Origin: a virus
Direction: 5' to 3' (one strand)
Virus record (IMG/VR): IMGVR_UViG_3300007539_000013
Coordinates: 15,742-79,741 of that record
Length of the DNA: 64,000 nucleotides
Below, piece by piece: positions 10,570 through 64,000 of this stretch. A program made the position numbers and the translations under genes. Each line of letters begins with the position of its first letter. Positions within the stretch are counted from its first letter, which is position 1. Under the pieces are notes generated by a model. That model had not been told where the DNA came from. It did not search any database and saw only the letters and a list, made by a program, of their open reading frames with translations.

Positions 10570-10593
10570 TGTTACAATTTAATTCGTGTTACA
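10570..10593 (-). promoter_or_regulatory. 24-bp bipartite motif copy
   Basis: TGTAACACGAATTAAATTGTAACA (minus), 10 nt before ATG 10559. Confidence 0.75.
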
Positions 10594-10600
10594 GATTTCG

Positions 10601-10822: not shown

Positions 10823-10841
10823 AATAATTATTTAGTAAATT

Positions 10842-12073: not shown

Positions 12074-12075
12074 GA

Positions 12076-12618: not shown

Positions 12619-12620
12619 TT

Positions 12621-13184: not shown

Positions 13185-13211
13185 GATTTATGATTAGTTG
13201 ATTGTTTTGAT

Positions 13212-13412: not shown

Positions 13413-16400
13413 TATGGAGCTTCCGTTGGAGTTCCAGTGGTCGCAAATTCCCACTGTGTCCCTCTGTTAGACAAGTTAAACCACGACCAGACCCCACTTG
13501 ATATATTAGTCGAGTGGGTTGTGTAAGGATAATCCCTTGGATTATCAGGGTCTTCTGCCCTAATTAGCGTTTGATCCTGACTTATTCCCGTCGTGCGGAA
13601 TACTGTTCCTGCAGGATGTTCAATTGCTGTTCCCGTTCTCGTATTAGTATAGGGCACTAAAAAATAAATGTGATGCGCTCCGACCTCATCAACAAAATTA
13701 TTTAAATCAAAGTATGGGTCGGGTACATACGGAACTTCAGGTTGTACATCCGTACCATCCGTACCATCCGTACCATCCGTACCACCTCCATCCGGAATTG
13801 TATTACCATATCCATTTAGGAAATCTTGGTAACTTCCAGTTACACTATTAAGCCCAACAGAAAGATTTTCTGCTGTCTTAATAGCACGGCCGATTTTAAA
13901 AAGAATTGAATTCGTATCAGTTCCTGCGGGTGGTGCCGTATATGTGGTTAAAACTACTTTTGCAGGCTCAGTCCCGCCAGGTATGTCAACAACATCTCCA
14001 TCCTGATAACCAGTACCATCATCTGTAATAGTTGGGTCTTTTACCCCTCCGTCATCATTCACATCGTAGCTAACTTTAAGGCCTGTTCCTGAGCCGCCTG
14101 TTGTTGGAACATCTGTACCCGGAGAAGTATAGCCAGAGCCCGTGTCTATGACTGTTGGTGTGGTAAATGTACAAAAATTCAGTAAACTCGTTGGCGGAGT
14201 GAAGTTGCCTGTGTAGACCGCTTTTTTACTGATGCGGATGTCTTGTATGGCTCCACTGGAATAATTAGGAGTCACCCGATAACCGATTGTGTGGTCCTGA
14301 ATTTTGTTGAAATTCCATGTGTTGAGCGCGTCACTGGTTGCTACTTGCTGACCGTCGTACCAGATGCTACAACCAGTTGATGTTCTGGTGAATGCCACAT
14401 GATGGAACTGCCCATCAAATTTAAATACTCCTAAACCGGTCTCCACCCGATTAGCAGTGTTATTACCATGCATGCTGAAGCCGATCACTCCAAGTGTATT
14501 AGCACCGAAGAACCAATCATCTAGCTGAGCAACATTACCATGAGGCAGATTTTGCAGTATGGTGAAATAATCTGATCCATCGCTTTTAATCCAAGCTTCT
14601 ATGGTGAAGTCACTGGTACCAAACGCCAGTGTGTCGCTACTTGATACTGTCAAATAATCTCCGTTACCATCAAAATTGATTGTTCCACCACCAAACAGTG
14701 TGGCAGTGTTGTCCACAACTGTATCACCAACTACAGTGATCTCATGATTGTTACCGCTTTTATCAGTGATCGTATCTCCAGAAGAAGGTTGAATATGTAA
14801 AACTACTTCTTCGCAAGTTGGCTCACTTGGAGGTGTCACAGCAACACTTAATGTGGTGGGTGGGGTAAAGTCTCCGGGGTAAACAGCCGTTTTGCTGATG
14901 CGAACATCTTGAATGTATCCATCATACTGAAGGGTGCCATTGGGCCATGAATGTCTTCCTACACGGAGTGCGTGGTATGAATTTGCAGTAGAATGAGAGC
15001 CCCCAACAGATTCTCCCACTAATACACCATTAACAAATAATTTGTACGTATTGAAATTGCGGCATACTGCAATATGATACCATGTGTTGAAATTTACTGT
15101 TCCTCCAGTAATGTTGACAACTGGACTCCCTTGGGCCCCGCTTGTTATCCTAAAAGTGAAGCCATCAGTACCTGCCCATAAACCAATTCCCAACGAAGTC
15201 GTGCTTCCACCTGTCGCTATAATGCTCGACCTTAAATCACTCCCCCCCCAATTACTTGAGTCCCCCCAGTCTGATAGATTTGCCCAGCACTCTACTGTGT
15301 AATCAGTGGTGCCATCATGCAGGAATTTGAATGTACTTTCATCTCCTATCTGTAAATAATCACCTGTGCCATCAAAAGCCATACTCGTAGAACCCAAGTA
15401 AGCTTCGGTAGTACTATGCTGTGTGTCCCCGAGAACTGATACTGAACGACTATTGTAACTTAAGTCAGTAAATGTAGTATTACCGTCAGTGGTGTTACTT
15501 TGAATAAGCAGTTCTATATCTTCACGACTTGGTTGTACGGGCTCACAACTCAATGAGTAAACATAAACTGAACCTGAGTCGGTGCCAGCGTCATCACCAA
15601 ATAATGAACCAACTGCTAGGTGGTCACCATCAAGACTCACACCGACACCGAAATAGTCATTAGTCACAGTGTCTGTGGCGCGAAACTTGTGTGTTTGTGT
15701 CCAGGTGCCATTCAGTAGTTCGAATATGTACACCGAACCACTATTAGCATCAGTGTCATCGTCAGCATGTGCACCAACTGCTAGTCGTGTACCAAGCAGA
15801 CTCACATCAATACCGAAATAGTCACCGGCCGCAGTGTCATTGCCCTGAAACTTATGGATTTGTACCCACGAGTTATTCTGCAACTCAAAGATGTACGCCG
15901 ACCCACTTTCGGAACTAGTTTCATGGTCAGGATGCGCACCAACTGCTAGTCGGTCACCATTCAGACTCACAGACCTACCAAAACGGTCACCAGCCACAGT
16001 GTCATTGCCCTGAAACTTGTGTGTCTGCGTCCACGTACCATTCAGCAGTTCGAATATGTAAACTGATCCACTATTAGTACCAGCGTCGTCGTCATCATGT
16101 GCACCAACCGCTAGTCGTGCACCTTCCAAGCTAACGCCGATACCAAAATAGTCATTAGCCGCAGTGTCTGTGGCACGAAACTTATGGGTTTGTACCCACA
16201 AATTATTCTGTAACTCAAAGATGTAAACTGACCCACTGTCGGTGCCAGCGTCGTCGTCAGCATGCGCACCAACTGCTAGTTGGTTGCCATCCAAACTAAC
16301 ACTGCGACCAAAACGATCATTAGCTACAGTGTCGTTACCCTGAAACTTATGGGTCTGTGTCCATGCACCATTTTGTAACTCGTAGATATATACACTGCCA

Positions 16401-18082
16401 CTGTCGGTGCCAGCGTCATCATCATAATGCGCACCAACTGCTAGTCGTGTGCCATCAATGCTGGCACTGATACCAAAACGATCACCATTAGAGCCATCTG
16501 ATGCTACAATTTTTTGTAATAACTGTGGGCAGATTTCGGTGGGTTGCTGTACAGTAACTTCAGATATTGTGGCGGTTACCGTACTAGATGCAGATCCATC
16601 ACCAATAACCGGGTAATATGTACCACTAGCTACTCCTGTTATTTGATAAGAAGTCCCACCATTAACTGAGTAATCAAGCGTGCCATTATCTGCGTCAAAT
16701 GTAAAAGTAACGGTATCTCCACTGCGTACTTGAGTAAGGGAGTTTTGGCTGGAAGAAGATTGGACATACTCTGTAACATAACTTAAGCCGCCTTGTGCAT
16801 ATATCCCGTAGGAATTACTAGATGCGCCAATGAATGTATTAGTGGCGGCTGGGTTCTGCTCACTTGTAATACCTAAAAATATACCCGAACCAATCGTATC
16901 TACTGTAAAATCAAATGAATATGTTCCACTTGAAATAGTTTTTGTACTAACTGCTCTGCGGAAAGTCGACGTACCAGTCTGAGCGGTTAAGTTATTATTA
17001 CTTAGCGTGACACCATTGTTGTATGACGTGGAGAATGCAATCTCGCCTGAGTTGTCAGTCGAAATACTAATATCCTCACCTTCAGATATTGTGGCAATTA
17101 CTGTTTTATCAGCGGCTCCACTACCAATGACTGGGTAATATGTACCAGCAGGAACTGCTTCACCCTGCATTTCAAATGCAGCGCCGCCATTTAATGAGTA
17201 ATGAATTTTTCCATTATCCGCATCAAAGGTAAAAGCAATAGTATCTCCTTCAACTACATTTACGTTGAAGTTTGCAGGTATATCCCCTAATGATCCAGTC
17301 CCTGGATTATACTCCTGAACATAACCATAGTTTGGTCGGGCATATATTCCGTGTGAGTTACTAGATGAACCAATAAATACATTGGAGCTATCTGGATTCT
17401 CCTCACTTGTGATGCCTAGAAATATACCAGCAGCAATTTTATCTATCGTGAACTCAAGGGAGAGTTTTCCACTTGAAGCAGATATTGAACTAACTGCTCT
17501 GCGGAAAGTCGTAGTACTTGTCTCAGCAGTTGTATTATTATTACTTAGTGTAACACCAGAGTTGTATGTTGTGGAGAATTGAGGGCCTACTGCAATAACA
17601 TCTACAGTACGAGTAACCTCAGTAGCCACATTTCCAGCGGCATCTGTGTAATTGTAAGCAATAGTATATGTACCAACCGTAGAAGTATCTACTGATCCTG
17701 TTACTACTGCGTCACCCGAACCATCTACATTGTCTGTCCATGTAGCACCTTGCTCGGTGTAAGTATCTCCTTGCGTTAGAGTTATACTAGCATCACCTGT
17801 TAGAGTGATTACTGGTTTTTCTGTATCTGATACATAAAGCTCATAATATGTGCCTAGGTCTGCTGGGTCTAAATACCTAGTTTGACCATTATAGGTAACC
17901 TCGTAATTGTATGAAGTGTAAAAGTAATTAATTCGTACAAGCTCTGCGGTTTCTCCCTCAGGAAAAAATATTGGGTAACTGTAGCTCCAACCACCACCAC
18001 CACTAGTCGCTACTGCACCATAAATCTTTGCGTAGTCGTATAGGGAAACAAATGTGTCACCAGGATTAAAAGATGTACTCAT
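13412..18082 (-). CDS. Giant multidomain adhesin/tail protein (DUF5011 Ig-like, 2x SPRY-like, FG-GAP repeats, 2x LamG)
   Basis: KPVITLTGD...GATWTDNVDG; two TLSNNN...FTFDADNG...YYPVIG units; six FGxSVSLDGxRLAVGA...SGSVYIFE repeats; two FDGxGDYL...TVECW...WYHIAV...IQDVRISK units. Confidence 0.85.
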   Translation of the reverse strand: MSTSFNPGDTFVSLYDYAKIYGAVATSGGGGWSYSYPIFFPEGETAELVRINYFYTSYNYEVTYNGQTRYLDPADLGTYYELYVSDTEKPVITLTGDASITLTQGDTYTEQGATWTDNVDGSGDAVVTGSVDTSTVGTYTIAYNYTDAAGNVATEVTRTVDVIAVGPQFSTTYNSGVTLSNNNTTAETSTTTFRRAVSSISASSGKLSLEFTIDKIAAGIFLGITSEENPDSSNVFIGSSSNSHGIYARPNYGYVQEYNPGTGSLGDIPANFNVNVVEGDTIAFTFDADNGKIHYSLNGGAAFEMQGEAVPAGTYYPVIGSGAADKTVIATISEGEDISISTDNSGEIAFSTSYNNGVTLSNNNLTAQTGTSTFRRAVSTKTISSGTYSFDFTVDTIGSGIFLGITSEQNPAATNTFIGASSNSYGIYAQGGLSYVTEYVQSSSSQNSLTQVRSGDTVTFTFDADNGTLDYSVNGGTSYQITGVASGTYYPVIGDGSASSTVTATISEVTVQQPTEICPQLLQKIVASDGSNGDRFGISASIDGTRLAVGAHYDDDAGTDSGSVYIYELQNGAWTQTHKFQGNDTVANDRFGRSVSLDGNQLAVGAHADDDAGTDSGSVYIFELQNNLWVQTHKFRATDTAANDYFGIGVSLEGARLAVGAHDDDDAGTNSGSVYIFELLNGTWTQTHKFQGNDTVAGDRFGRSVSLNGDRLAVGAHPDHETSSESGSAYIFELQNNSWVQIHKFQGNDTAAGDYFGIDVSLLGTRLAVGAHADDDTDANSGSVYIFELLNGTWTQTHKFRATDTVTNDYFGVGVSLDGDHLAVGSLFGDDAGTDSGSVYVYSLSCEPVQPSREDIELLIQSNTTDGNTTFTDLSYNSRSVSVLGDTQHSTTEAYLGSTSMAFDGTGDYLQIGDESTFKFLHDGTTDYTVECWANLSDWGDSSNWGGSDLRSSIIATGGSTTSLGIGLWAGTDGFTFRITSGAQGSPVVNITGGTVNFNTWYHIAVCRNFNTYKLFVNGVLVGESVGGSHSTANSYHALRVGRHSWPNGTLQYDGYIQDVRISKTAVYPGDFTPPTTLSVAVTPPSEPTCEEVVLHIQPSSGDTITDKSGNNHEITVVGDTVVDNTATLFGGGTINFDGNGDYLTVSSSDTLAFGTSDFTIEAWIKSDGSDYFTILQNLPHGNVAQLDDWFFGANTLGVIGFSMHGNNTANRVETGLGVFKFDGQFHHVAFTRTSTGCSIWYDGQQVATSDALNTWNFNKIQDHTIGYRVTPNYSSGAIQDIRISKKAVYTGNFTPPTSLLNFCTFTTPTVIDTGSGYTSPGTDVPTTGGSGTGLKVSYDVNDDGGVKDPTITDDGTGYQDGDVVDIPGGTEPAKVVLTTYTAPPAGTDTNSILFKIGRAIKTAENLSVGLNSVTGSYQDFLNGYGNTIPDGGGTDGTDGTDGTDVQPEVPYVPDPYFDLNNFVDEVGAHHIYFLVPYTNTRTGTAIEHPAGTVFRTTGISQDQTLIRAEDPDNPRDYPYTTHSTNISSGVWSWFNLSNRGTQWEFATTGTPTEAP
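13747..13782. repeat. Perfect 9-bp tandem repeat x4 (CATCCGTAC), encodes (GTD)4
   Basis: Directly visible and in frame. Confidence 0.95.
15555..16520. repeat. Six ~165-bp FG-GAP coding repeats
   Basis: 55-aa period; recurring GCACCAACTGCTAGT and GAAACTT blocks. Confidence 0.9.
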
Positions 18083-18651
18083 GATGCGAAATTCGCAGTT
18101 AGGTTTCTAGCTTCCGACATCGTAATCGTTGTGGTTGCTGTGTTTGATTCACCTGCAAGTAATCCAGTCCACCCGGAGAATGTATATGGGCTGGATGCAA
18201 CAGCAGATATTTCAACCTGCTCGCCATCTGGATATGAATTGTAATTTCTGTCCGATCCTGTGATTGAGGCTGACCCACCTGTATTTGCTGTTACAGTAAG
18301 CTCAAATAGCTGATTAAATACGTCCCCATTTATCCCTGCTTGAAAGTATGCGAGGGCATTATCCTCAAGCAAATCATGATGATACATAAGGTAATCTATT
18401 GCATCACCTGCTGTTTCTATAAAACTAGGGAATAGGTTAGATCCATCATTTGACCATTCGGTACCACCCAATCCCTCGAGATAAGAAAGTTCAGACCACT
18501 TACTTGTGCCGTCTCCTAGTTTTAATTTGTTAAGATTTGTATTATAAGCGGGCTCCCCGGCCATCAAAACAGGATCATACTGCTCCCACTCCTGTGTACT
18601 CCCCTTTCGAAATGTTATTCGAGCGGTTACAAATCTATTCGGCTGAGGCAT
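18079..18651 (-). CDS. Tail protein: Mtd-N/hyaluronidase-like N-terminus plus InlB B-repeat-like C-terminus
   Basis: VLMAGEPAYNTNLNKLKLGDGTSKWSEL; YTFSGWTG...RNLTANF. Confidence 0.75.
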   Translation of the reverse strand: MPQPNRFVTARITFRKGSTQEWEQYDPVLMAGEPAYNTNLNKLKLGDGTSKWSELSYLEGLGGTEWSNDGSNLFPSFIETAGDAIDYLMYHHDLLEDNALAYFQAGINGDVFNQLFELTVTANTGGSASITGSDRNYNSYPDGEQVEISAVASSPYTFSGWTGLLAGESNTATTTITMSEARNLTANFAS

Positions 18652-18674
18652 GTTACAATATTATTCGTGTTACA
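18651..18674 (-). promoter_or_regulatory. 24-bp bipartite motif copy overlapping the start codon
   Basis: TGTAACACGAATAATATTGTAACA (minus); its last A is the A of ATG. Confidence 0.75.
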
Positions 18675-19014
18675 CTGAATATAAATTATCTCGCACAGAC
18701 TGCAAGATTTGATTCGTTACTTCTAGTGTCTGATTTGTCTCCAATATTGTATTAGTGACACTAGAGTCCAGGTTTGAAATGGCTAAATTTGTTGAGTCAC
18801 CCTGAGTTCTTAATCCATCAGCAAGGTCTTTCTGAAAGAATATTGTTAATTGATCCTGAACTCGATCGAGATTTATTCTTAAGTCTTCATACCAATCATT
18901 AAATCTTTTATCGAATTTCTTCTCATCTTCACCTTTTTTGGGTAAGGCATCATTATCAGGAAACGAAGGCTCCGTGTTGCGCTGAAATGTATTAACTGGC
19001 AGTATATCCGTCAT
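18670..19014 (-). CDS. Hypothetical virion protein
   Basis: 114 aa, coupled to the nozzle gene. Confidence 0.6.
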   Translation of the reverse strand: MTDILPVNTFQRNTEPSFPDNDALPKKGEDEKKFDKRFNDWYEDLRINLDRVQDQLTIFFQKDLADGLRTQGDSTNLAISNLDSSVTNTILETNQTLEVTNQILQSVRDNLYSV

Positions 19015-21701
19015 CCTTGATTAATTGTTTGTGTAGTTGATCTCGTATCAATCCCACTAACCTCAAATGTTCTTCCAACTAACTTAACTGGGTTATCTAT
19101 TACCAATGGAAGGTTATCGTCCCAATAATAAATATTCGACCTGTCACTACCTATCTTTGACTTAACATATCCATACTCAGTATATCCAAAATGCTCATAG
19201 GTAGGCTCTACTATAACTTGATCCCTTAGATATGGAGCCTGAATAAGAAGGGGGATCATGTTTTCATCTACTATATCATTTAAAATAACATAGTCTAATC
19301 CACCACCTAGGGTCTGTATTTCCTCTGTGCCCTGTGGTGCAGTATTTGTGCTTATCCTAACTTTTACTGGAGTTGTTCCGTACTTAGAAGATAACTCTAA
19401 CACATAAGATCTTATTTCTTTATCAGAAAAAGAATCACCAAAATCTATCAATCCGCTCTTGATCGCAGACCGATAACCATAACCAATTCTGTTATATATT
19501 CTGTACGGTTTGGTCTCACCCCTCTTTGGAGGGCCATAACCATACCTCACGATACAACCCCCATACCTTGCGTCTTCTCGGTAATCAGACCCAATATACA
19601 AACTTGTATTATCCCAAGCCTGATGAACTGCCATTAGAAACCATAACTCATCCGGGCCGACTCTGTTGTATTTTGGTCTCCTGATGGTAAAGCAAGAGGT
19701 AAATGAGGCATCTATCTGTGATAATGTTTCATTTACATAATCATACGCAATAACTCCCCAATTTATTACAGGATTGTTAGTTTGCTCACCAAACTCATCG
19801 ACATAGTTTCCTGCAGAATCCTCCTTATAGCCAATAGGGCAATTTATAAATATCTCCCTAGTTACTGGATTATCCACAGCATATACAAATTCCGATAACT
19901 CCGGAGGAACCATTTGCCAGAAAGGCGGGCCAAGCTCAAACTTATCAACAACCTTTGGCTCTACGGAAGATCTATTAATTACATAAACTCCGCTATTTCC
20001 CATAAACAAGTGCTGGTTCCCGCCAAGATTTATTATTGTGTGGCGAAAATCAGGAACCCTGCCCCCTTGGTATCGTGGATCGACAGCAAAAGGAGTGTAA
20101 GGCGAATTTGTAGTGGTTACAAAATAGAAGCCCGTATCCCTATAAACAACGAGCTTGTCTGCTAGTTCTTTTATTTTTGTCACCCTGGATCCATCTTGGA
20201 CAAGCTCATAAAATGCCGCTGGCTTCTTTATTTGCTCTACATAAGGTCGGATAACCACTCGATACTTTCCGTCAATCAACGGCTGCCCTGTAGTGGGATC
20301 AAGTAATACTACATTAGATTGATTCTTATCAATTAAAGTTCCAGAAGAACTAATAAATATACCTGAAGATAATGACCCTATGGATGTAATCATCTGGGTA
20401 ATGATTTCAGCCTCAGTAAATCCTTTATTTACCGTATCCAACTCATCTCGCACTCCATACTTGGCAACTAAAGAATTAATCGCAGAGCTTCTTTCTGTAG
20501 ATGCAAAGTTCTCATTATCATACTTAATTGCACTAATTGACTCATAGGATGAGTCACTTGAGGGCGTGAAGTAAATAGACATGTGGTCTACATCCCCATA
20601 GTTGCCATTGAAAAATGTACGATATAATGAACCTGGCTCATCAATAGGAAAATTATAATCCTGCACGAATGTGTAGGTTCCATTTGATATAAATAAGTCA
20701 CCTGGTAAACCCCCGCCTTCGGGAATCATGGTGTTGGTTGTTGGGTCTATTACGCCTGTATTAAATAGCTTTGGGTCGGCTTCAGAAGAATAGATTATTC
20801 GATATTGAAATCTTTGTGTCTGCACGGATGCGGCCGGCATATCGGTGTTATAGCCTAAATCAGCCCAATCCTCGCCTTCATCGACATCGGGAATTATTTT
20901 TCCGTATGGGTTAGTGGCATACTTGAACCAATTATCATACCCTGAGGATATTAGTGTTAAATCTCCACATACTAATCTGTCCTGAAATTTACCTATTGTT
21001 CCAACGGAAACTACCCCATTTTCTCGTAATCCATACAGGGGAACTACATAACTCCATTCGCTTTTGTAGATTACAGGTAAATCGATTCCATTATTAATTA
21101 TTAAATGGTTTTGAATCTCAATAAATTCCCATCTGTATGCACCACCCTCAAATGGGTCTTTGTATGTGCCATCCGACTCCTTTGAGTCCATGTGATAATT
21201 TATCACATTTCTTGTTGGGTGCATTATTGGTTGCCAAGTAAAGTCATCAGCATCGTTACTAAAATAGTCTACATCCCTTAATGTCTCGGGTGCATCAAGC
21301 CCATCTTCTGTTGCGTATTCCTGCACTGGAGATGTGTTTAGAATATCACTTGAATCAATAGCGTACCTTCTGTCTCCAGATAATAGCTTATAGATAGTAC
21401 CTCCCGCAATCGCTATAAGGACAGGAGTTCCATCAGTTCCCGTAAATTGATACATGCCCCGTATAGGATAATCAGAATTCAAGGCATCATCATTTCCGGT
21501 GGGATTAAATAAGTCCCATCCTTCCCTTCTTAGCTCACCATCAGTTTCCCTTCTAAAATTTAGCTTCTGCGTGTAATTAGCAGATGAAGTAAGGTAATTT
21601 GTGGCTTGAGATAAAGGAACATCATCAGACGCAGAACCAACTAACTGGCCACCCTGTGATGGGTGAATAGTTATATTTTTATATCTTTTTTTTGCCATCA
21701 A
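19011..21701 (-). CDS. Probable tail nozzle / packaged-DNA stabilisation protein
   Basis: 896 aa beta-rich; NFRRETDGELRREGW N-terminus, FQDRLVCG, IKSGLIDFGD...KEIR; position after the adaptor. Confidence 0.6.
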   Translation of the reverse strand: MMAKKRYKNITIHPSQGGQLVGSASDDVPLSQATNYLTSSANYTQKLNFRRETDGELRREGWDLFNPTGNDDALNSDYPIRGMYQFTGTDGTPVLIAIAGGTIYKLLSGDRRYAIDSSDILNTSPVQEYATEDGLDAPETLRDVDYFSNDADDFTWQPIMHPTRNVINYHMDSKESDGTYKDPFEGGAYRWEFIEIQNHLIINNGIDLPVIYKSEWSYVVPLYGLRENGVVSVGTIGKFQDRLVCGDLTLISSGYDNWFKYATNPYGKIIPDVDEGEDWADLGYNTDMPAASVQTQRFQYRIIYSSEADPKLFNTGVIDPTTNTMIPEGGGLPGDLFISNGTYTFVQDYNFPIDEPGSLYRTFFNGNYGDVDHMSIYFTPSSDSSYESISAIKYDNENFASTERSSAINSLVAKYGVRDELDTVNKGFTEAEIITQMITSIGSLSSGIFISSSGTLIDKNQSNVVLLDPTTGQPLIDGKYRVVIRPYVEQIKKPAAFYELVQDGSRVTKIKELADKLVVYRDTGFYFVTTTNSPYTPFAVDPRYQGGRVPDFRHTIINLGGNQHLFMGNSGVYVINRSSVEPKVVDKFELGPPFWQMVPPELSEFVYAVDNPVTREIFINCPIGYKEDSAGNYVDEFGEQTNNPVINWGVIAYDYVNETLSQIDASFTSCFTIRRPKYNRVGPDELWFLMAVHQAWDNTSLYIGSDYREDARYGGCIVRYGYGPPKRGETKPYRIYNRIGYGYRSAIKSGLIDFGDSFSDKEIRSYVLELSSKYGTTPVKVRISTNTAPQGTEEIQTLGGGLDYVILNDIVDENMIPLLIQAPYLRDQVIVEPTYEHFGYTEYGYVKSKIGSDRSNIYYWDDNLPLVIDNPVKLVGRTFEVSGIDTRSTTQTINQG

Positions 21702-56511: not shown

Positions 56512-56523
56512 TTGTGTTACAAA

Positions 56524-56547
56524 TGTAACACGAAATAATAAGTAACG
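56524..56547 (+). promoter_or_regulatory. 24-bp bipartite motif copy
   Basis: TGTAACACGAAATAATAAGTAACG followed by AAAGGAGG and ATG 56560; an extra TGTTACA at 56515. Confidence 0.75.
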
Positions 56548-56559: not shown

Positions 56560-56928
56560 ATGCCTGATAATATGGATCCCTATTCGGTGGGGGATATAAA
56601 TACACACATCGATCACATGGTTAAGGACGCTATGCGTCCCGTTGAACCACCAGTACTAAACCCTATTGATCGTTTAGATCTACCTGCATTCATCCGCAAG
56701 GATGAACGGGTAAACATAGCTCAGATCAATGGGGTACTGAACCTGGCACAAAGCCGTAATGAACTGCCCACATTTATTGAGGTGCAGAATATTAACGGGT
56801 CTCATGTCATCCGTGTCGAGTTTGGCACAGATGTACGAATCGTAACCAAAAGTCCAACGGGATACCACATAGAACACCCGGTAGACTTCGAACTAATAGG
56901 AAGGAAAATCAATGACAATAGAATATGA
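56560..56928 (+). CDS. Hypothetical protein
   Basis: Strong SD. Confidence 0.65.
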   Translation: MPDNMDPYSVGDINTHIDHMVKDAMRPVEPPVLNPIDRLDLPAFIRKDERVNIAQINGVLNLAQSRNELPTFIEVQNINGSHVIRVEFGTDVRIVTKSPTGYHIEHPVDFELIGRKINDNRI

Positions 56929-57493
56929 AGACCCAAACAAGGGTAACATCTACACGCTCAATGACCATGGGTCAGGCAATATGACCTGCACTGTAAATAT
57001 GAGCAATCGTAAGGTTGTGCCTTGGCCAACCGAGTATGCCAACCTTGGTAAGCAACTGGAAGAGTTCGTTCCGCATCTTCAATGTATGGCTCTAGCTGAA
57101 GAAATATTCAGGGGTGAGGAAGCCAAGGAGATTGCTCGTACTTATGAGAAGTTGGCTAGTTACTGGACGGAGATGCCTGATGCACCAACGGATGATCCAA
57201 ATGCTGATAAAGTATGGCTCAAGTTCTTTAATACAACTGGGGCAGGCTATTGGTATATGATGACAAAACCCAATAGGGCAACCGGAGATCATGCCTATGG
57301 GTATTGTGTGATCTTTGAAGACTGTGGTGAGTATGGCTCATTTGTCTTCAATGACCCACGCTACCCCAAGGATGACATCATGCAAGTATGCCCGATGCTT
57401 AATGTGGATACATGGTTTGAGCCTGTGTTGTACACAGATTTCAAGGCGCAGTTACTCATGGATAAGATCCCAGAGGACAATGAACTGGGCTAA
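56912..57493 (+). CDS. DUF2958-like protein
   Basis: LKFF..G..YWYM...AYG...GEYGSF...VDTWFEP. Confidence 0.6.
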   Translation: MTIEYEDPNKGNIYTLNDHGSGNMTCTVNMSNRKVVPWPTEYANLGKQLEEFVPHLQCMALAEEIFRGEEAKEIARTYEKLASYWTEMPDAPTDDPNADKVWLKFFNTTGAGYWYMMTKPNRATGDHAYGYCVIFEDCGEYGSFVFNDPRYPKDDIMQVCPMLNVDTWFEPVLYTDFKAQLLMDKIPEDNELG

Positions 57494-58187
57494 ATGGAGG
57501 CTTGAGTCACCAGATAAAATCATAGGAAGTAAGGCGCAAGCCACATATCGGGGAGTAGCACAACAGCTCTCCGAAATGAAAGACCTCGTAGGCACAGAGT
57601 CTACGGGGTCTTTTGCTTTCAGTGGTGATCCTGGTGTGGGTAAAACATCTATTGCCATGATGCTTGCCAATGGTTGGGTGGATGATCCGTTCAATCTAAG
57701 GCACGGCCCTGAGTTCTCGGGGCGCAGTATCAAGGAGGCAACCCTGTCTACCTTAATTGACGAGTGTAGGTATGCACCACTCATAGGTAAATGCCGTGCC
57801 CTTGTCATCAATGAGGTGGACAAGATGCAACGCCACTTACAGGAGATGCTACTCGATTGGATCGAGGACTATCTGCCTGATCACTTTGTGGTCTTCGTGA
57901 CTACGAACAAGAACCTAGAGGCAAAGGTGGTGGTGGACAAGCTAAGTAAGTCAGAGCGAGAGGAGTACCTTGAGCCTAGATTTGCTGAGCGGTTCATGCC
58001 CTACCACATAACCAACCCTACCAATGAGGAGATGGCTAGTTCCATTGAATCGTTGACGGGTGTACCGACCCAAATTGCGCAACATGCCGCGCGCAATGCA
58101 CAAGGTTCGGTGCGGTCTGCACTGAAGCAGGTCGCAAAATGGAAAGCGGCAGTAAACTCAAAGAAGGAGGCTAAGTTATGCCAATAA
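57480..58187 (+). CDS. AAA+ ATPase of the clamp-loader clade
   Basis: KWR..SPDKIIG, GDPGVGKTS, VINEVDKM, VTTN, RFAERF, GSVRSAL; likely ATG at 57480. Confidence 0.85.
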   Translation: MNWAKWRLESPDKIIGSKAQATYRGVAQQLSEMKDLVGTESTGSFAFSGDPGVGKTSIAMMLANGWVDDPFNLRHGPEFSGRSIKEATLSTLIDECRYAPLIGKCRALVINEVDKMQRHLQEMLLDWIEDYLPDHFVVFVTTNKNLEAKVVVDKLSKSEREEYLEPRFAERFMPYHITNPTNEEMASSIESLTGVPTQIAQHAARNAQGSVRSALKQVAKWKAAVNSKKEAKLCQ

Positions 58188-58864
58188 ATACTAAACAGGA
58201 GTTCATGGAATGGTACTCCAAAAATGTTAAACCAGATACATCAAAGAAGAATGCCTTCAAGGGTATGGTCACCACCGTATCCCCTGAATCAGCAGCAAAC
58301 TTTGCTACATTCTTCACTAATGATAAAATTGTGCCGGACATCAAAGGTGAGACGAAGGATGAAACGAGGTTCCGTCTCATCAATGAGTGGAAGGATAAGC
58401 TCGATCTCATGGATCACTCAGCACCTGTGGCTACCGAGGAAGTTCGTGGTGACATTACTGACATCGCTGACATGCCTGAGACGGAGGTAGTGGACGACAT
58501 ACCAGTCAAACCTAAGGTTGTGGATGTGGAGCTATCCGCTGAGCGTGAAGCCGAGGACATTGCATCTGCTGTGGAGAACAGGCAAGAGCAAGCGTCTGAT
58601 CCAGCAGACTACCTTGGGCCTCATGCTCAATCAGAGCCTCAACTATCACCACCGCCCGCCACCACATCTGATGTGCTTACTCAGCTGGGAACTGCATTGA
58701 GTGCCTTCATTGCTTCAACGGACTCCCCGCCAGAGGACACGGCAGATGGAGCTAGTAAGGATGCAATCCTTAAGCTTGGTAAGATCGTTGCAGAACAAGG
58801 CAAGACCATTGAGAAGCTCGAAAAGAAAGTGAAGAGCTTATTCAACGCATTGAGGGATGAGTAA
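58178..58864 (+). CDS. Hypothetical protein with acidic linker and C-terminal coiled coil
   Basis: AAGGAGG SD; TAATG-coupled to PRTRC protein E. Confidence 0.65.
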   Translation: MPINTKQEFMEWYSKNVKPDTSKKNAFKGMVTTVSPESAANFATFFTNDKIVPDIKGETKDETRFRLINEWKDKLDLMDHSAPVATEEVRGDITDIADMPETEVVDDIPVKPKVVDVELSAEREAEDIASAVENRQEQASDPADYLGPHAQSEPQLSPPPATTSDVLTQLGTALSAFIASTDSPPEDTADGASKDAILKLGKIVAEQGKTIEKLEKKVKSLFNALRDE

Positions 58865-59367
58865 TGAGCGTCACTAAACAGATTGGTGAACTCTGTGGTG
58901 CAGGGTTCACTGTAAATGTGGTGTACTCACCATCTCAGGAGGAGGGTAAGATCAATGCTACCTTTCTCCTGTCTGGTGACAAGCACCTGGAAAGCGAACA
59001 CGATGAGGTTGTAAAGCTTCTCAAGAAGCCTATACAGATTCCACCATCAACCCCAGAGGAGCTTGAGCAAGTTGTGCTTGCTGAGCTAGAGCCTGTGGTT
59101 GAGGAGCGTGTGCCTATCTCAAACTCAATCAAGGAGGAGTACGATAAGATACAGGCAACCAAAAAGAAGACACCTGCCAAAAGGACTCCTGCTAAGAAGA
59201 CTACTGCGGTCAAGAAGAAGACAAAGGCACAGGAGGCAAAGGAGCAAGCCCGTGCGAAAGCAGAGCAAGCAACTGCCGACCTGCCCTTGTTTCAGTCTGA
59301 TCGTAGTGCCAAGGCAAAGGAGAAAGACCCAACACCTACTGAGGAGGAGGAGGTAATCGAGCTATGA
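58864..59367 (+). CDS. PRTRC system protein E
   Basis: KPIQIPPSTPEELE (PLxLxGTPxELD-like), K/A-rich tail with LPLF; cassette context. Confidence 0.7.
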   Translation: MSVTKQIGELCGAGFTVNVVYSPSQEEGKINATFLLSGDKHLESEHDEVVKLLKKPIQIPPSTPEELEQVVLAELEPVVEERVPISNSIKEEYDKIQATKKKTPAKRTPAKKTTAVKKKTKAQEAKEQARAKAEQATADLPLFQSDRSAKAKEKDPTPTEEEEVIEL

Positions 59368-59564
59368 GTAAGGTACTTCCAAGAGTGTTCGTACTATCTG
59401 GTAAGGAGCCACTACCTGACCCAGCACCTTCATTATCCGTGGAGGAGGTCAGAGGCTTGCTTGCTAAAACCTATCCGGAACTAACCAATGCGAAATTCAC
59501 AGAAAAAATTGAAGATGAAAAAATCGTCATCAGGTTTGAAGCGAGTTACGGTACCAAAGGCTAA
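59364..59564 (+). CDS. PRTRC system protein C (prokaryotic ubiquitin-like)
   Basis: RVF...LPDPAPSLSVEEVR...YPELTNA...GTKG-stop. Confidence 0.92.
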   Translation: MSKVLPRVFVLSGKEPLPDPAPSLSVEEVRGLLAKTYPELTNAKFTEKIEDEKIVIRFEASYGTKG

Positions 59565-59573
59565 GGAGCTACT

Positions 59574-60467
59574 ATGGTTGAAATATTGCTCGGCCCTGAA
59601 ACACAGGCTCGAAAATGTCAAAGGAGGGAGGCTTCCTTCTCATTTGCTACCTCCTCGGCTCTAGCCCCACCAGCGACATGTCCAACAATTATATTGAATG
59701 GACTTTCGTACATGGCTGTAGCCAAGGAAACGGAGGCTGATGAAGAGCTATCCACTCTGTTCTCAGAATCTGGCTTCAATCTGATTGCTGGCATTATGGA
59801 CGGGGGTTGCTACATAGACTCTCACAGTAAGTTCACCTCTTATGCTATTGGTGCAAGGGTGGATCTACTGGAGCGTAGATGCGGTGCAGGTTGGTACTTG
59901 CTTCAACTACTAGATGACTGCCCCATACCTATATGGGATCCAAGATTCTTGTATGACCATGCCAAGCACATGTTTAACCTTGATTTCCATAAGTGTACAT
60001 CAGAGTGGCTATGGGAAAAACCAACCCAAGATTGGGACAGGAAGTTCCCCGCCTGCAAGAGTAGACTACCCAAAAAGCTACGCAAGCTATGTACTGATGT
60101 GGAGGAAGCTAGTGCAGACCCAAGGATGCACGAGCTATGGCTAGGTGCCAACTCGGAGTACCCGGACAATGAATGTGCCCAAATCCCTGCGATCGTGCTG
60201 TCGTGGTGGGATAATGTTCATTGGTATAATGGTCAGTGCAGAAAGAACCCATCGTTCACAATAGAGCATGGGACTAACCCTGTGTTCGCAATAATGGACT
60301 CATATGCAGAAAGCACACTGCAGACAGGAGCAACTCACATGGGATCACCAATCTACCATGACCTTGATGATGTAAGGACAATCGTAGAGCTGGCGAAACC
60401 ATACGCAAAATTAATTGATTACTTATCGCACGATGAAGAAGAATGTGGATTCAACTGTATCTTTTGA
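59574..60467 (+). CDS. Probable PRTRC system protein F
   Basis: Position between C and B; LERRCGAGWYLLQLL...IWDP segment. Confidence 0.5.
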   Translation: MVEILLGPETQARKCQRREASFSFATSSALAPPATCPTIILNGLSYMAVAKETEADEELSTLFSESGFNLIAGIMDGGCYIDSHSKFTSYAIGARVDLLERRCGAGWYLLQLLDDCPIPIWDPRFLYDHAKHMFNLDFHKCTSEWLWEKPTQDWDRKFPACKSRLPKKLRKLCTDVEEASADPRMHELWLGANSEYPDNECAQIPAIVLSWWDNVHWYNGQCRKNPSFTIEHGTNPVFAIMDSYAESTLQTGATHMGSPIYHDLDDVRTIVELAKPYAKLIDYLSHDEEECGFNCIF

Positions 60468-61017
60468 GGGCAGTGTAACAAGTGCTTTGATGTTCTTTAA
60501 GGTAGGCAGTCAAGATGTCGCCTTGATGATGAAGTGGTGTGATGAGCAAGGGTGGCACTCACCTAAGCCTATCGACCATGATGAGATGGTGGCTATTGCT
60601 AACTCAACATCAAAGAACACTGAGTTCCTTCCCGACCGCATGCTGACATACAACAGCGAGATAAATTTCTCCTGGTGGGTGCCCGCAAAGCGAAGGAAGA
60701 TCAATGTAAAGAAATCAACGCGTAAAGAATTCTACTATCCAGCCATGGTCTTTCATGTGCTGTGCGGAATGCTTTATGTTGGTTGTCTTAAAAACAATAG
60801 AAGACCAACCCCTGAAACCGAGACATACAGTATATTCGGCAAAATGGATGTTCACCAAACAAGAGCAGCCTTCTGTCAAACTCGTAAACCTGAAGGAGTG
60901 GGGGTAAGCACGATCCCTCAATGGGAGGATGCCTTCTATAAATCAACCTATAACAAGCTACCTAACCTAAAGGAGTGGAAGCCAAATGGAACTGTGGGGT
61001 CGATATGCACAAAGTAA
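60433..61017 (+). CDS. PRTRC system protein B (prokaryotic E2 family D)
   Basis: WWVPAKRR, YPAMVF, RPTPET, FC, WEDAFYKS. Confidence 0.85.
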   Translation: MKKNVDSTVSFEGSVTSALMFFKVGSQDVALMMKWCDEQGWHSPKPIDHDEMVAIANSTSKNTEFLPDRMLTYNSEINFSWWVPAKRRKINVKKSTRKEFYYPAMVFHVLCGMLYVGCLKNNRRPTPETETYSIFGKMDVHQTRAAFCQTRKPEGVGVSTIPQWEDAFYKSTYNKLPNLKEWKPNGTVGSICTK

Positions 61018-61694
61018 ATAGATTCCCTAGCTCTGTTCATATCTCAGTCATAGGCTGTGGAGGTACGGGTTCCCATGTGGTCAATCAGTTGGTCGATGTG
61101 CATACTGCTATCACAACACTTGGTCATCCTGGTCTAACAGTCCAGGCATACGATGGCGATGCTGTCGCTTTTAGTAATGTTGGTAGGCAAGCATTCTACC
61201 AACAGGATGTAGGTAGGCCAAAGGCTCAAGTGCTAATTGAAAGGATCAATATGTACTACGGGTTGAATTGGCGCGCCCACAACCACCTAGCTAACGGTGT
61301 TGGAGTTAGTGCTGATATTCTTATATCATGCGTTGACACCAAAGCGTCAAGACGCCTCATCAAAGGAGCCCCTAAGACCAAAAAGACATACATCATTGAG
61401 TGTGGTAATGCCCGAGCTTCGGGGCAGGTAATACTAGGTCAGGAAAAGGGTGACCTACCAAACCCATATCGTGAACACCCTGGTCTCACGAAGGGTAAGG
61501 AACCGAAGGGCGAGGGATGCCTCGACCCATATTATAAACAAGACTTGGCGGTCAACAGGGTGGTCGCTACATACGTACAACAAATCGTTTGGGACTTATT
61601 GCGTAAGCATGAGATCGGATACCGAGGGGTATTCTTCGATCTCACAAAGTTTACAAGCAATGGTATCCAAGTAAATAGAAAGGAGGGTGCATGA
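61005..61694 (+). CDS. PRTRC ThiF-family E1-like enzyme
   Basis: VIGCGGTGS, DGD.V..SNVGRQ.F...DVG..KA, SCVD...R, ECGN...GQVILG, EGC...QDLAVN; alternative GTG start at 60975. Confidence 0.93.
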   Translation: MHKVNRFPSSVHISVIGCGGTGSHVVNQLVDVHTAITTLGHPGLTVQAYDGDAVAFSNVGRQAFYQQDVGRPKAQVLIERINMYYGLNWRAHNHLANGVGVSADILISCVDTKASRRLIKGAPKTKKTYIIECGNARASGQVILGQEKGDLPNPYREHPGLTKGKEPKGEGCLDPYYKQDLAVNRVVATYVQQIVWDLLRKHEIGYRGVFFDLTKFTSNGIQVNRKEGA

Positions 61695-64000
61695 TCAATA
61701 TACATGACATGTACATAAAGAACGACGGATCCATCGGTATTGATACCGAGTTCGCACCATTTGATGACACAGGTCATCGAGGATGGAAGGAGCTGAAGGA
61801 TCTAATCAAGGAGCATGACCTTAGCGTTAAAGTGCCAAGAGGCTCAGTTATTGAGTGTCTTGAGTCTATTGCGGGTAAGACTCCACTAGAGCTAACCATA
61901 ACAATGGAGGACAGGGACAAGCTAGTTGCTTTGTACTCACATCCTAAAGTAACAAAGGATCAAGAATGTGCGGAGGTTATCCTCAAGGCGTTGCAAGACT
62001 CCGAGAAGATTGCTCCCCCTATCCTACCGCCAACCGACTACTCGCTCATTGCTTATGTGGATGAGTTTGGGTCACTAAAGTGTAAGGAGACCAAGAGGTA
62101 TGCCCTATCCAGCGGAGGCACTGTTCGTCCTTTTGTTATTGCAGAGGGTAAAGAGTACTCAGTTGAGTTACGTGCCAATGGTTACTCGGATGCGTTCACT
62201 AGACCAAAGGTTCATTATAGTTCACTAAAGAAAGAAATGACCAAGGTGATGCACGACATCACGCTTGAGGGTACAGATACTAACCTAGTACTCAATATAA
62301 CAACCGACTGGAAGCCTGACACTAAATTCATTGATGGTGAGTTAGTTCGTCACGACTACTCGTGGTACAGGTGCAAGTCAGAGCATCAGTCTGGAGAGCA
62401 GTTCGATGGTGATAAGTTTGAGCGTACTTGGAACAACTCAGTTGAGATTATCTTCCGGCAGTATGTTAATGTCGACAAACCAAGGGGCGCTCCTGAGGTT
62501 GATGAGAACTTACTATGGGAGATATTTGAGAAGCCCGCAGTAAATAACATTACGCAGAAGTATCCAGAAAAGTATCAAGGTAACCTTGAGACCTTGGAGT
62601 TCATGCAAGAGTTCACCGATGATGTTAGGTGGTACCCTGTTCAGCGTGAGTTCATTGCTTCTATGGCTTGTGCAGATACAGGACTTATTGCAGCGGAGAC
62701 GGGAGCAGGTAAGTCGGGTATGGCTATTGGTCTTATTAACTGTAAGGCACCTGGTCGTACATTGCTTATTGCTCCCAAGGGCACCGTTGACGATGGCGGG
62801 TCACTTGACCTCGCTCAATGGCAACGAGAGTTCAATAAGTTCTCGCCCGATACTCCTGTGTACACAATGTCATCAGAGGAGGACTTCCGTCAGCTGGCAG
62901 ATGCAAACGGAGGTGAACTGCCCTTTGGTGTATTCATCTCATGGGACTATGTGATGTTCAAGAAGGATGCCCTAGAGGTTGAACCCGATGCGTGGACAAA
63001 AAGCACAATGGAAGCTAAGATGCGTAAGCGTTGCGGACTGCCGAAGTGGGAAATCGGGGATCAGTATTACTCTCAGAACATTGGTCAAATATCTGACGGC
63101 AAAGTAATCACCGAGTTCAAACCTGAGATCACCCATGACGAGGATGGTAATGTAAAGGTAAAGAAACAAGGTAACCTTGTGCGCCCGAAGGGTGGCTTCA
63201 AGTGTATCGCTATGCCATGCCTCGCAACCAAGCTAGGTAACATATGGGATATGATCGTTATAGACGAGGCGCATCTCATCAAGAACCCTAACTCGCAGAT
63301 CACGCAGGCAGTAACCATGATGCAGGCACCTTATCGGTTCTGCCTTACTGCTACTCCGATCCATAATTATGCCTACGACATATTCACCCTAGCTGGTTGG
63401 TTATGTGTAGACGATTGGTGGAGAGGCAATAGATCAAACCCTCGCTGGCCATACACGAGACAACAAATGGGTAAGTTCAGGGATCGCTTCCTATCTAAGG
63501 AGGTTGACCATACACAGCGTGAGATCAACAGGACTAGCAAGAATCAAATCAGTACGACTAAGGAGTCGCCTATACTGTCTGAGCCCCAATCCTTACTCAA
63601 GCAGACTGGTACTTTCCTTGGTTTTGTAACCAAGAGGCAGTGCAATCCAGATATGGTTAAGTGTATCATTCATGATGTACGAGTGGAGATGTCGCTTGAG
63701 CAACATACGATGTACAAGCATTGGCTGAACTTCGACAATATTGATGCCGCAGGCACGCAAATGGTCATGAAGCAGATGCAGTACTTGCGAGGTGTATGCT
63801 CATCACCTGACGAGGGTAAGCACGCTACCGAGTACGAGGCAACCGGTATGCTCATGCCTAGTCCATTCAATCACAAAATTATCGCTGTTATTGAGACTAC
63901 AATATCGTGCCTGTCCAGAGGGGAGCAAGTTACAATCGTGTACTACTCGAAAGGTCAAGGTCGAGTCCTTAGCGAACTGCTATCATCAGCAAGCATTAAG
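61691..64000 (+). CDS. SNF2-family helicase, 3' end outside window
   Basis: Absent from the ORF track (runs off the edge). AAGGAGG SD and ATGA overlap with the E1 gene; motif I LIAAETGAGKS, motif II VIDEAHLIKN, motif III LTATPIHN. Confidence 0.9.
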   Translation, partial: MINIHDMYIKNDGSIGIDTEFAPFDDTGHRGWKELKDLIKEHDLSVKVPRGSVIECLESIAGKTPLELTITMEDRDKLVALYSHPKVTKDQECAEVILKALQDSEKIAPPILPPTDYSLIAYVDEFGSLKCKETKRYALSSGGTVRPFVIAEGKEYSVELRANGYSDAFTRPKVHYSSLKKEMTKVMHDITLEGTDTNLVLNITTDWKPDTKFIDGELVRHDYSWYRCKSEHQSGEQFDGDKFERTWNNSVEIIFRQYVNVDKPRGAPEVDENLLWEIFEKPAVNNITQKYPEKYQGNLETLEFMQEFTDDVRWYPVQREFIASMACADTGLIAAETGAGKSGMAIGLINCKAPGRTLLIAPKGTVDDGGSLDLAQWQREFNKFSPDTPVYTMSSEEDFRQLADANGGELPFGVFISWDYVMFKKDALEVEPDAWTKSTMEAKMRKRCGLPKWEIGDQYYSQNIGQISDGKVITEFKPEITHDEDGNVKVKKQGNLVRPKGGFKCIAMPCLATKLGNIWDMIVIDEAHLIKNPNSQITQAVTMMQAPYRFCLTATPIHNYAYDIFTLAGWLCVDDWWRGNRSNPRWPYTRQQMGKFRDRFLSKEVDHTQREINRTSKNQISTTKESPILSEPQSLLKQTGTFLGFVTKRQCNPDMVKCIIHDVRVEMSLEQHTMYKHWLNFDNIDAAGTQMVMKQMQYLRGVCSSPDEGKHATEYEATGMLMPSPFNHKIIAVIETTISCLSRGEQVTIVYYSKGQGRVLSELLSSASIK

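Follow-up and report, generated by a model that had tools for sequence, protein, structure and literature searches.

The 64,000-nucleotide stretch analysed here (the window) encodes what we read, at odds of roughly two to one, as an accessory PRTRC-type Ubl conjugation module: five genes with a tail-less Ubl and neither JAB nor ParB, flanked by AAA+ and SNF2 genes that belong to the phage backbone. In type it would correspond to operon 6d (Iyer et al. 2006), with an E-like basic protein, Ubl, a helical protein in the F position, E2 and ThiF/E1. The five genes form a 2.8-kb block (58864-61694), which would lie within an early DNA-metabolism operon between the clamp-loader-type AAA+ gene and SNF2.

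Genome Context and Gene Chain

The carrier is an uncultured temperate phage, represented by a record of ~79.7 kb with 19-bp identical termini, whose end coincides with that of the window. The SNF2 reading frame resumes at record position 20 and runs into a Helicase_C domain; relatives L003 and L004 have a single ORF of 929 aa, without interruption, that is colinear with the frame joined across the record ends. The genome, ~79.7 kb in length, is circular or circularly permuted and complete. Given the in-frame continuation of SNF2 and the identical termini, the sequence beyond position 64000 is the start of the record. The earlier note had left room for JAB and ParB genes just past that point, but the record start holds small ORFs, DpdA and an integrase, and neither gene is found there. 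The features of the gene chain are as follows.

56524..56547, + strand: degenerate motif copy, TGTAACA-N10-AGTAACG, 12 nt ahead of the chain
56560..57493, + strand: two overlapping ORFs of 122 and 193 aa, the second with a weak DUF2958 match
57480..58187, + strand: AAA+ ATPase of the clamp-loader clade (Pfam, NCBIfam, PHROG and PDB matches)
58178..58864, + strand: 228-aa acidic protein, family scans without match
58864..59367, + strand: PRTRC_E-like protein, 167 aa (profile-profile comparison, position)
59364..59564, + strand: Ubl (Prok_Ub / PRTRC_C), 66 aa (PF14454 match)
59574..60467, + strand: F-position orphan, 297 aa (position; no family)
~60433..61017, + strand: E2-like protein (Prok-E2_D / PRTRC_B; PF14460 match)
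61005..61694, + strand: E1-like PRTRC ThiF, ~230 aa (TIGR03736 match)
61691..64000, + strand: SNF2 helicase, first 770 of 929 aa, the remainder at record positions 20-499

The genes from 56560 onward do form one chain on the + strand, as the earlier note had it, with every junction overlapping or separated by at most 9 nt. That the chain starts at a motif copy holds only weakly: this copy carries two mismatches and was missed by the search at up to one mismatch, which recovered eight genome-wide matches to TGTWACA-N10-TGTWACA (0.02 expected). It is a possible operator or promoter element. Two further details of the earlier description can be read directly in the sequence, namely that the E2 gene runs straight into ThiF (its end at 61017 overlaps the ThiF start at 61005) and that ThiF and SNF2 share an ATGA overlap at 61691-61694, from which we predict translational coupling of the two genes. 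With junctions this tight or overlapping, the module probably shares a transcript with SNF2 and AAA+. Two other proteins of the chain have counterparts in phages that lack the cassette: a homologue of the 193-aa protein occurs in L172, and a weak homologue of the 228-aa acidic protein, which has no family in Pfam, NCBIfam and PHROG scans, lies directly 3' of the AAA+ gene in L169.

The Five Proteins of the Module

The first protein is globular in its N-terminal part and ends in a basic tail rich in Lys and Ala. It has no direct Pfam or NCBIfam match (including TIGR03741 / PF19556), but comparison by hhalign of the clade alignment with E-position ORFs, among them L049 7465-7986, which Pfam assigns to PRTRC_E, gave a probability of 97.6% (E 4e-12, residues 1-106). 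Its gene always lies immediately 5' of the Ubl gene, and the product of 58864..59367 is a PRTRC_E-like protein. The Ubl matches PF14454 at 53.3 bits (cut-off 25) and TIGR03738 at 41.6 bits, slightly below the cut-off of 45.95; its C terminus reads ...YGTKG, with the stop codon right after the glycine, and it is a PRTRC protein C with the conserved C-terminal Gly. ThiF scores 193.7 bits against TIGR03736 (cut-off 144.75; 193.1 bits in a six-frame search) and has a nucleotide loop, GCGGTGS, that is invariant in the clade; it is a PRTRC-type ThiF/E1.

The E2-like protein is divergent; starting at 60415 (TTG) or 60433 (ATG), it matches PF14460 at 56.9 bits (cut-off 25) and TIGR03737 at 60.6 bits, far below the cut-off of 131.45. 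The clade alignments lack the downstream His of the family (F-[ST]-H) and show an invariant D-x-H ahead of the Cys, giving D-x-H...C (D139/H141/C148); judged from these alignments, an E2 with a relocated active-site His appears to be specific to this phage clade.

The 297-aa protein in the F position has no Pfam, NCBIfam or PHROG match and belongs to a family of only ~27 clusters, all of similar length. Its AF2 model (pLDDT 82, pTM 0.77) is mostly alpha-helical and yielded no fold match (Foldseek E>0.6, VIA Z<=2.5). It occupies the position of PRTRC_F, has a similar length and is modelled as helical, but no sequence or profile link to PRTRC_F was found. Comparison by hhalign with F-position ORFs of other groups was negative, and the F-position proteins of those groups do not match among themselves either. 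It thus seems, on sequence grounds, to represent an orphan helical family specific to this phage clade, and could be a specificity factor or an enzyme.

Might the cassette descend from a canonical PRTRC system and, having lost JAB and ParB, now be decaying or inactive? Such decay could account for an E2 and a Ubl that fall under the NCBIfam cut-offs, for the E2 without the family's downstream His and for the unrecognisable F-position protein. We consider it extremely improbable, as the five ORFs remain intact and colinear across eight phage lineages whose ThiF identities fall as low as 43%, as invariant residues of catalytic type and the tight coupling of the genes persist, and as most of the lineages sampled are JAB-less in layout. 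The same E-C-F-B-ThiF arrangement without protein A recurs often in Acidobacteriota, Deinococcus and the conjugative-element-like loci of Bacteroidota, including bacterial chromosomes, and the earlier description of a distinct phage variant was therefore overstated. What the phage carries is an accessory form of a known cassette, one without JAB that lies inserted between replication genes of the backbone.

Absence of JAB and ParB and the Ubl Tail

Six-frame HMM searches of the whole 79.7-kb record at E<=10 found no Prok-JAB, PRTRC_A (TIGR03735/PF14464) or JAB/MPN domain and no PRTRC_parB (TIGR03734) or ParB_N, bearing out for the complete genome the earlier claim that both are missing; the same search for protein A scores 214 bits in the positive control, L016. 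RadC is absent from the record at E<=0.01, a scan for HxH...S..D gave chance matches only, and no relative in the clade has ParB. The overlap of E2 and ThiF leaves no room for a protein A gene between them.

Across 46 ThiF lineages, presence of JAB and of a Ubl tail are associated (Fisher p = 6e-6, the lineages not being fully independent phylogenetically): 35 have neither, seven have both, four have JAB without a tail and none has a tail without JAB. The seven tailed Ubls extend 62-100 aa past GTKG, each in a lineage with a JAB gene, and the Ubl stops at Gly in all 35 JAB-less lineages. The suggestion that no maturation step is needed when the Ubl already ends in Gly fits this rule and has experimental precedent in the Bub systems: in type I, JAB cleaves a Ubl pre-protein, and in type II the Ubl is free and JAB usually missing (PMC11601596). 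JAB and ParB are apparently missing because the Ubl is already made in finished form.

A genome without a deconjugating peptidase would also suit a different chemistry, in which Ubl and ThiF form a sulfur-carrier pair (ThiS/ThiF, MoaD/MoeB or TtuB-like) and tag no protein, the Ubl thiocarboxylate feeding nucleic-acid or cofactor modification and perhaps being tied to the phage's DpdA DNA-modification gene. Ancestrally, sulfur transfer pairs a ThiF-family E1 with a beta-grasp protein that ends in Gly (PMC1779556), and DpdA lies in the same region. However, a dedicated E2-like protein with an invariant Cys is kept in every lineage, no rhodanese, cysteine desulfurase or sulfurtransferase was found among the ORFs scanned, and DpdA also occurs in cassette-less L171 and shifts position among relatives, making this explanation very improbable.

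The AAA+ and SNF2 Neighbours

The AAA+ protein matches Pfam AAA and DNA_pol3_delta2 (27.2 bits, cut-off 27), an NCBIfam delta'/gamma family and a PHROG annotated as clamp loader (7e-15), and its closest solved structure is pol III gamma (3.5e-7, PDB). These matches place it in the clamp-loader clade, with a likeness to DNA pol III gamma/delta'; among the ORFs scanned, neither a partner polymerase nor a clamp turned up. The SNF2 gene matches SNF2-rel_dom (PF00176, 70.2 bits) and ResIII, and its continuation matches Helicase_C at 20.1 bits, below the cut-off of 23.5; with an N lobe and a Helicase_C lobe, it is an SNF2-family helicase.

What is the relevance of this neighbourhood? The earlier note considered the cassette wired to both motors, which would receive an irreversible Ubl mark, read it or remodel it in a phage-specific system. 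Beyond the ThiF-SNF2 ATGA overlap, with coupling in both G000 and L003, SNF2 lies 0-2.7 kb 3' of ThiF on the same strand in all eight cassette-bearing lineages of the clade, and AAA+ lies 2-3 kb upstream of Ubl in most of them. The very distant phage L049 also has ThiF followed by a 920-aa SF2 helicase fusion, but this is a helicase-methyltransferase fusion and thus of different architecture; likewise, acidobacterial JAB-less cassettes have an AAA_5 ATPase upstream, but it is unrelated, sharing only Walker motifs with the phage AAA+. An apparent link between SNF2 and AAA_5 was traced to profile drift.

The wiring becomes unlikely in light of the relatives. Three related phages lack ThiF and Prok_Ub throughout their records but carry orthologues of AAA+, SNF2 and the integrase in unchanged order; one of the three is complete and has terminal repeats. 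In an SNF2 tree the cassette-less phages interleave with the carriers. Variable inserts of 0.2-2.7 kb separate ThiF from SNF2 in relatives, for example the ORFs in L009-L012. The gene-neighbourhood comparison called for by the earlier note gave no support either: this SNF2 is absent within 10 kb of the cassette in ~30 other JAB-less lineages, and of 16 further viral records with PRTRC only four have any SNF2, in most cases well away from the cassette. Because the orthologues keep their order where no cassette exists, SNF2 and AAA+ appear to be phage backbone genes, made neighbours by the insertion site and not dedicated components. A secondary functional link of SNF2 to the cassette is possible, given its constant place 3' of ThiF in the clade and the coupling in two genomes.

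Proposed Mechanism and Significance

According to PMC13366799, PRTRC function has not been studied. For the accessory conjugation module, we propose the following model. E1 would adenylate the C-terminal Gly of the Ubl, which would be handed to the invariant Cys of E2, helped by the invariant Asp-x-His seven residues upstream, and then attached to a target, with the F-position protein possibly serving as specificity factor. A plausible substrate would be the Lys-rich, probably DNA-binding E protein. One may go further and imagine a one-way "chromatin-mark" of the phage, a non-removable tag placed on a DNA-bound protein during early infection or establishment, with the 297-aa protein as a new kind of E3 or specificity factor; the tagged protein may be the Lys-rich E protein, the co-translated SNF2 or AAA+. 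We regard this extension as quite unlikely; if it were true, the relocated E2 His would have arrived independently at the HPN-Cys geometry that is classical in eukaryotes.

PRTRC cassettes occur widely, being carried by plasmids, conjugative elements and temperate phages. The rule that emerges is simple and testable, a JAB gene accompanying a tailed Ubl pre-protein and JAB-less cassettes a ready-made Ubl, and it suggests that processing of the pre-protein is among the roles of protein A. The minimal, five-gene, peptidase-free versions offer convenient material for reconstitution. A tempting over-reading of adjacency is also corrected, the flanking SNF2 and AAA+ being backbone genes of the phage group that lie outside the system.

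Comparison with Known Systems

The Bil (bacterial ISG15-like) antiphage system, like the module here, has separate Ubl, E2 and E1 genes, and conjugates its Ubl to a protein target in phage-host conflict. Bil is host-encoded and always accompanied by a JAB (BilC), whereas the present module is phage-encoded with a short ThiF of ~230 aa. Bub follows the same logic as PRTRC here, its JAB-bearing sister type cutting the Ubl pre-protein with JAB. Type II Bub (6E.2) has an E2-E1 fusion, Ser/Tyr oxyester chemistry and BubE, a serine protease with DUF6527; in the phage module E2 and E1 are separate ORFs, E2 has an invariant Cys, and no DUF6527 is present among the Pfam matches of the gene chain. We take the likeness to type II Bub as one of analogy, not membership.

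As described in PMC1779556, operon 6d combines JAB, E1 and E2 with a Ubl that has a C-terminal Gly and with a "rapidly diverging alpha-helical protein". Canonical PRTRC (NCBIfam TIGR03734-03742) shares with the phage module the order E, C (a Ubl ending GTKG), F position, B (E2) and ThiF, a ThiF above the family cut-off and carriage by mobile elements including temperate phages. It differs in having protein A (JAB with JAB-N) between B and ThiF and a ParB-like gene, and in making C as a pre-protein with a 62-100 aa tail, in place of the 66-aa Ubl ending at Gly; Ralstonia phage Dina, a canonical, RefSeq-annotated example (gp07-gp02), has the order E-C-F-B-A-ThiF and a C of 129 aa. The phage F-position protein also looks unrelated to its canonical counterpart, and in the phage E2 the downstream His is replaced by a D-x-H that precedes the Cys.

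Nearest in layout are the JAB-less PRTRC-like cassettes of Bacteroidota, Acidobacteriota, Deinococcus and viral contigs of ~50-100 kb. Their F-position families are different, in most of them E2 follows the canonical motif G-x-V-C-x-G ... F-[ST]-H, and their neighbours are DUF932, an AAA_5 ATPase and a conjugative-element-like primase/TraG, not SNF2 and a clamp-loader AAA+. With the phage module they share the E-C-F-B-ThiF order without protein A, an E2 gene abutting ThiF and a Ubl that stops at Gly.

The Gene Chain and the Ends of the Genome

From 56560 to the end of the window, gene calls place a tightly packed chain of genes on the + strand, in which a PRTRC-type ubiquitin-like (Ubl) cassette lies between an AAA+ ATPase gene and an SNF2 helicase gene:

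start of the chain, from 56560, +, two ORFs without known function
57480-58187, +, AAA+ ATPase of the clamp-loader clade, 235 aa (DNA_pol3_delta2; PHROG "clamp loader", 7e-15)
between the AAA+ gene and the 167-aa gene, +, acidic 228-aa protein
58864-59367, +, predicted PRTRC_E homologue, 167 aa, with a Lys/Ala-rich tail (profile comparison)
59364-59564, +, Prok_Ub/PRTRC_C (Ubl), 66 aa, the ORF ending ...YGTKG-stop
59574-60467, +, u297, 297 aa, of no family
about 60433-61017, +, Prok-E2_D/PRTRC_B (E2)
61005-61694, +, PRTRC-type ThiF (E1), 193.7 bits against a cut-off of 144.75
from 61691, +, SNF2 helicase, its ATG overlapping the ThiF stop (ATGA, 61691-61694)

The E2 gene directly abuts ThiF, and ThiF overlaps the SNF2 start, as the earlier note had read them. 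That note also had the chain from 56560 start at a copy of a repeated motif; the tight packing stands, but the copy (56513-56547 region) is degenerate, with a tight palindrome, TGTTACA-AA-TGTAACA, in front of it. The motif itself, TGTWACA-N10-TGTWACA with at most one mismatch, occurs eight times against 0.02 expected (window 10570, 18651, 25299, 30472, 34768, 34785, 45589 and 49015). Pol III gamma is the nearest solved structure to the AAA+ protein, and DnaB, a PD-(D/E)XK nuclease and DpdA are found in the neighbourhood of the AAA+/SNF2 region.

The record (79,741 bp) is rated complete by CheckV, and the window (positions 15742-79741) ends at the record end. The two record termini share 19 identical bases (window 63982-64000 = record 1-19), and the record boundary splits the SNF2 gene, whose reading frame resumes at record position 20 and continues into the Helicase_C domain; the joined protein of 929 aa is colinear with unbroken ORFs in two related contigs at 80% identity. 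The genome is therefore a closed circle or circularly permuted. IMG/VR labels the record "linear". The region beyond 64000 is thus the record start, and it holds small ORFs, DpdA (a 7-deazaguanine DNA-modification enzyme; record 3436-4284) and a tyrosine integrase (record 4523-5578). A single ORF of 4042 aa occupies record 7181-19309 on the minus strand (window up to 3574).

Search of the Genome for JAB and ParB

The claim that the cassette lacks both a JAB peptidase and ParB holds for the rest of the genome, including the stretch past 64000. Searched in six frames with HMMs, the complete record gave no match to Prok-JAB, PRTRC_A, PRTRC_parB, ParB_N or JAB/MPN even at E≤10, nor to RadC at E≤0.01, while control loci were matched strongly by the same searches (214 bits for PRTRC_A in locus L016). 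A scan for the HxH...S..D motif gave chance matches only, and neither JAB nor ParB is found at the record start. RadC-type JAB proteins (HNHPSG...PS..D) adjoin SNF2 in two relatives, just after it in contig L008 (13605-14072) and between ThiF and SNF2 in contig L012 (5461-5958), and another lies in contig L014 (399-866). We rejected them as parts of the cassette and regard them as sporadic neighbours, because neither the source genome nor most of the clade has them.

Cassette Layouts

How unusual is a cassette of this kind? A ThiF profile search yielded 80 loci each from viruses and from bacterial genomes, among which three layouts can be distinguished. The first belongs to a monophyletic clade of uncultured phages of 56-81 kb that includes the source phage (ThiF tree support 96/91; ThiF identity 43-69%). 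Its order is E-Ubl-u297-E2-ThiF, with the E2 abutting ThiF, the SNF2 gene 0-2.7 kb downstream and the clamp-loader AAA+ gene 2-3 kb upstream of the Ubl. In the second layout, found in many other viral contigs and in bacterial loci (Bacteroidota, Acidobacteriota, Deinococcus, Gemmatimonadota and Armatimonadota), the E2 likewise abuts ThiF and protein A is missing, with different neighbours (bacterial examples at L087 924-3012, L093 5207-7143, and L096 4590-5714 and 12185-16968). An AAA_5 ATPase and DUF932 lie upstream in Acidobacteriota; in Taibaiella the cassette is preceded by DUF932 and followed by a Toprim primase and the coupling protein TraG, in a locus resembling a conjugative element. 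The third, canonical layout, E-C-F-B-A-ThiF-ParB-like, is seen, among others, in ~40-kb proviruses and in the RefSeq-annotated Ralstonia phage Dina. Compared with it, the source cassette lacks protein A and ParB, two of the features that give PRTRC its name.

Since the JAB-less layout is present in viral contigs and in several bacterial phyla, it is neither rare nor phage-specific, and on the ThiF tree it requires at least three to four changes of state. The proposal of a distinct phage variant is thus overstated as far as the missing peptidase is concerned, this state being common to many bacterial cassettes; in the source phage clade the novelty lies in the family at the F position and in the changed motif of the E2. 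Only four GenBank phages carry a PRTRC ThiF, all of them canonical Ralstonia/Burkholderia records, and the clade's SNF2 is in none of the four.

SNF2 and AAA+ as Probable Backbone Genes

The earlier note had further proposed that the cassette is wired to the AAA+ and SNF2 motors. Its neighbourhood is conserved to the extent that SNF2 follows ThiF in all eight cassette carriers of the clade. A profile of the clade's SNF2, used to look for further contigs, however, recovered four more, representing three phages (one complete with terminal repeats), in whose records ThiF and Prok_Ub have no match anywhere. In these cassette-less phages the orthologue of SNF2 is full-length (817-845 bits; E about 1e-135 by phmmer) and keeps its place in the order with the orthologue of AAA+ (E from 1e-11 to 1e-15) and the integrase; in the SNF2 tree these phages interleave with the cassette carriers. 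In one of them, L172, the SNF2 orthologue is a 1453-aa ORF (7050-11411), exceeding the others by about 500 aa. Several clade members have 0.2-2.7 kb of variable ORFs between ThiF and SNF2, including the RadC-type JAB of L012. About 30 other JAB-less lineages are without the clade's SNF2. Of 16 other viral records with PRTRC, just 4 encode any SNF2, in most cases at a distance from the cassette.

The simplest reading makes AAA+ and SNF2 part of the backbone of the early DNA-metabolism region, with the 2.8 kb cassette as an accessory block placed between the two. Cassette and SNF2 are probably transcribed together and, in the source genome, translationally coupled. Dedicated wiring to the two motors is less likely, as both orthologues persist in the three phages without ThiF and Ubl. 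A secondary link is possible, given the constant position of SNF2 after ThiF in the carriers, the unrelated AAA_5 upstream of the acidobacterial cassettes, and a very divergent JAB-less cassette in the distant phage L049 (11172-15322), where a 920-aa fusion of an SF2 helicase with a methyltransferase comes next after ThiF, with DnaB behind it. An apparent likeness of the phage SNF2 to the acidobacterial AAA_5 was dismissed as profile drift: the non-iterated clade HMM gave no match, and BLASTP aligned Walker motifs only.

Components and a Model for Conjugation

The 167-aa protein was not matched by direct HMMs. Its clade profile aligns over the globular N-terminal 106 residues with same-position proteins of other cassettes, a comparison set that includes one protein named PRTRC_E by Pfam (probability 97.6%, E 4e-12), and on this profile evidence we assign it as a PRTRC_E homologue. 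An hhalign comparison with the group-III E-position set was negative and is uninformative, because the set was contaminated by wrong-frame ORFs from high-GC DNA.

The orphan protein u297 occupies the place of protein F, which in operon type 6d is alpha-helical and fast-diverging (Iyer et al. 2006; PMC1779556, Table 1 row 6d). Its family is small (about 27 clusters), with two histidines among the residues invariant across the wider family. The AF2 model is confident and mostly helical (pLDDT 82); neither Foldseek nor VIA-align against 48,161 chains found a fold match for it, and the ESM Atlas returned nothing. We considered u297 as a PRTRC_F, to which an NCBIfam scan of 25 family members, hhalign and a relaxed HMM search gave no link, and as a hidden JAB; it has no HxH...S..D motif and its model no fold match, leaving a peptidase role unsupported.

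The E2s of the clade (60433-61017 in the source) share an invariant Asp-x-His seven residues upstream of the invariant Cys. Missing from them is the downstream histidine of F-[ST]-H, which most other members of the family have and which Iyer et al. described (PMC1779556). Judging from this pattern, the active-site histidine may have been relocated; the observed Asp-x-His would then recall the position of the HPN histidine in classical E2s.

As PRTRC cassettes have yet to be studied by experiment (PMC13366799), we infer the mechanism as a whole. The E1 would adenylate the C-terminal Gly of the Ubl, which would move to the E2 Cys and then onto some target; the F-position protein may supply specificity, and a candidate substrate is the E protein, which is rich in Lys and probably binds DNA. 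The cassette is a variant of the known PRTRC-type kind, and the alternatives of a sulfur-carrier system or a decaying remnant are less likely.

Ubl Maturation and the Peptidase

In canonical loci the Ubl ORF runs 62-100 codons past GTKG, and phage Dina's protein C has an annotated length of 129 aa. Such tailed pre-proteins (L016 6327-6809; L236, phage Dina, 3010-3399; L052 7400-7864; L121 6543-7115) have two types of tail, neither with a Pfam domain. At locus L057 (3262-4353), the Ubl ORF has two Ubl repeats, the second also ending ...GAKG before a short extension, and resembles polyUbl operons.

JAB peptidase (protein A) and Ubl tail after the Gly across 46 lineages of ThiF (clusters at 70% identity)
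JAB absent, no Ubl tail: 35 lineages
JAB present, Ubl tailed: 7 lineages
JAB present, no Ubl tail: 4 lineages
JAB absent, Ubl tailed: 0 lineages

The association is strong (Fisher p = 6e-6, the lineages not being fully independent phylogenetically). By these counts, a tailed pre-protein always occurs with a JAB (7/7), and every JAB-less cassette codes for a Ubl that is already finished (35/35), which bears out the suggestion that the Gly-ended Ubl of the source phage needs no maturation. This rule, together with a minimal, peptidase-free cassette suited to reconstitution, is the most useful outcome of the analysis. It matches the experimentally studied Bub systems, where in Type I the JAB-E1 cleaves the pre-protein after its Gly, and in Type II the Ubl is free and the JAB usually missing (PMC11601596).
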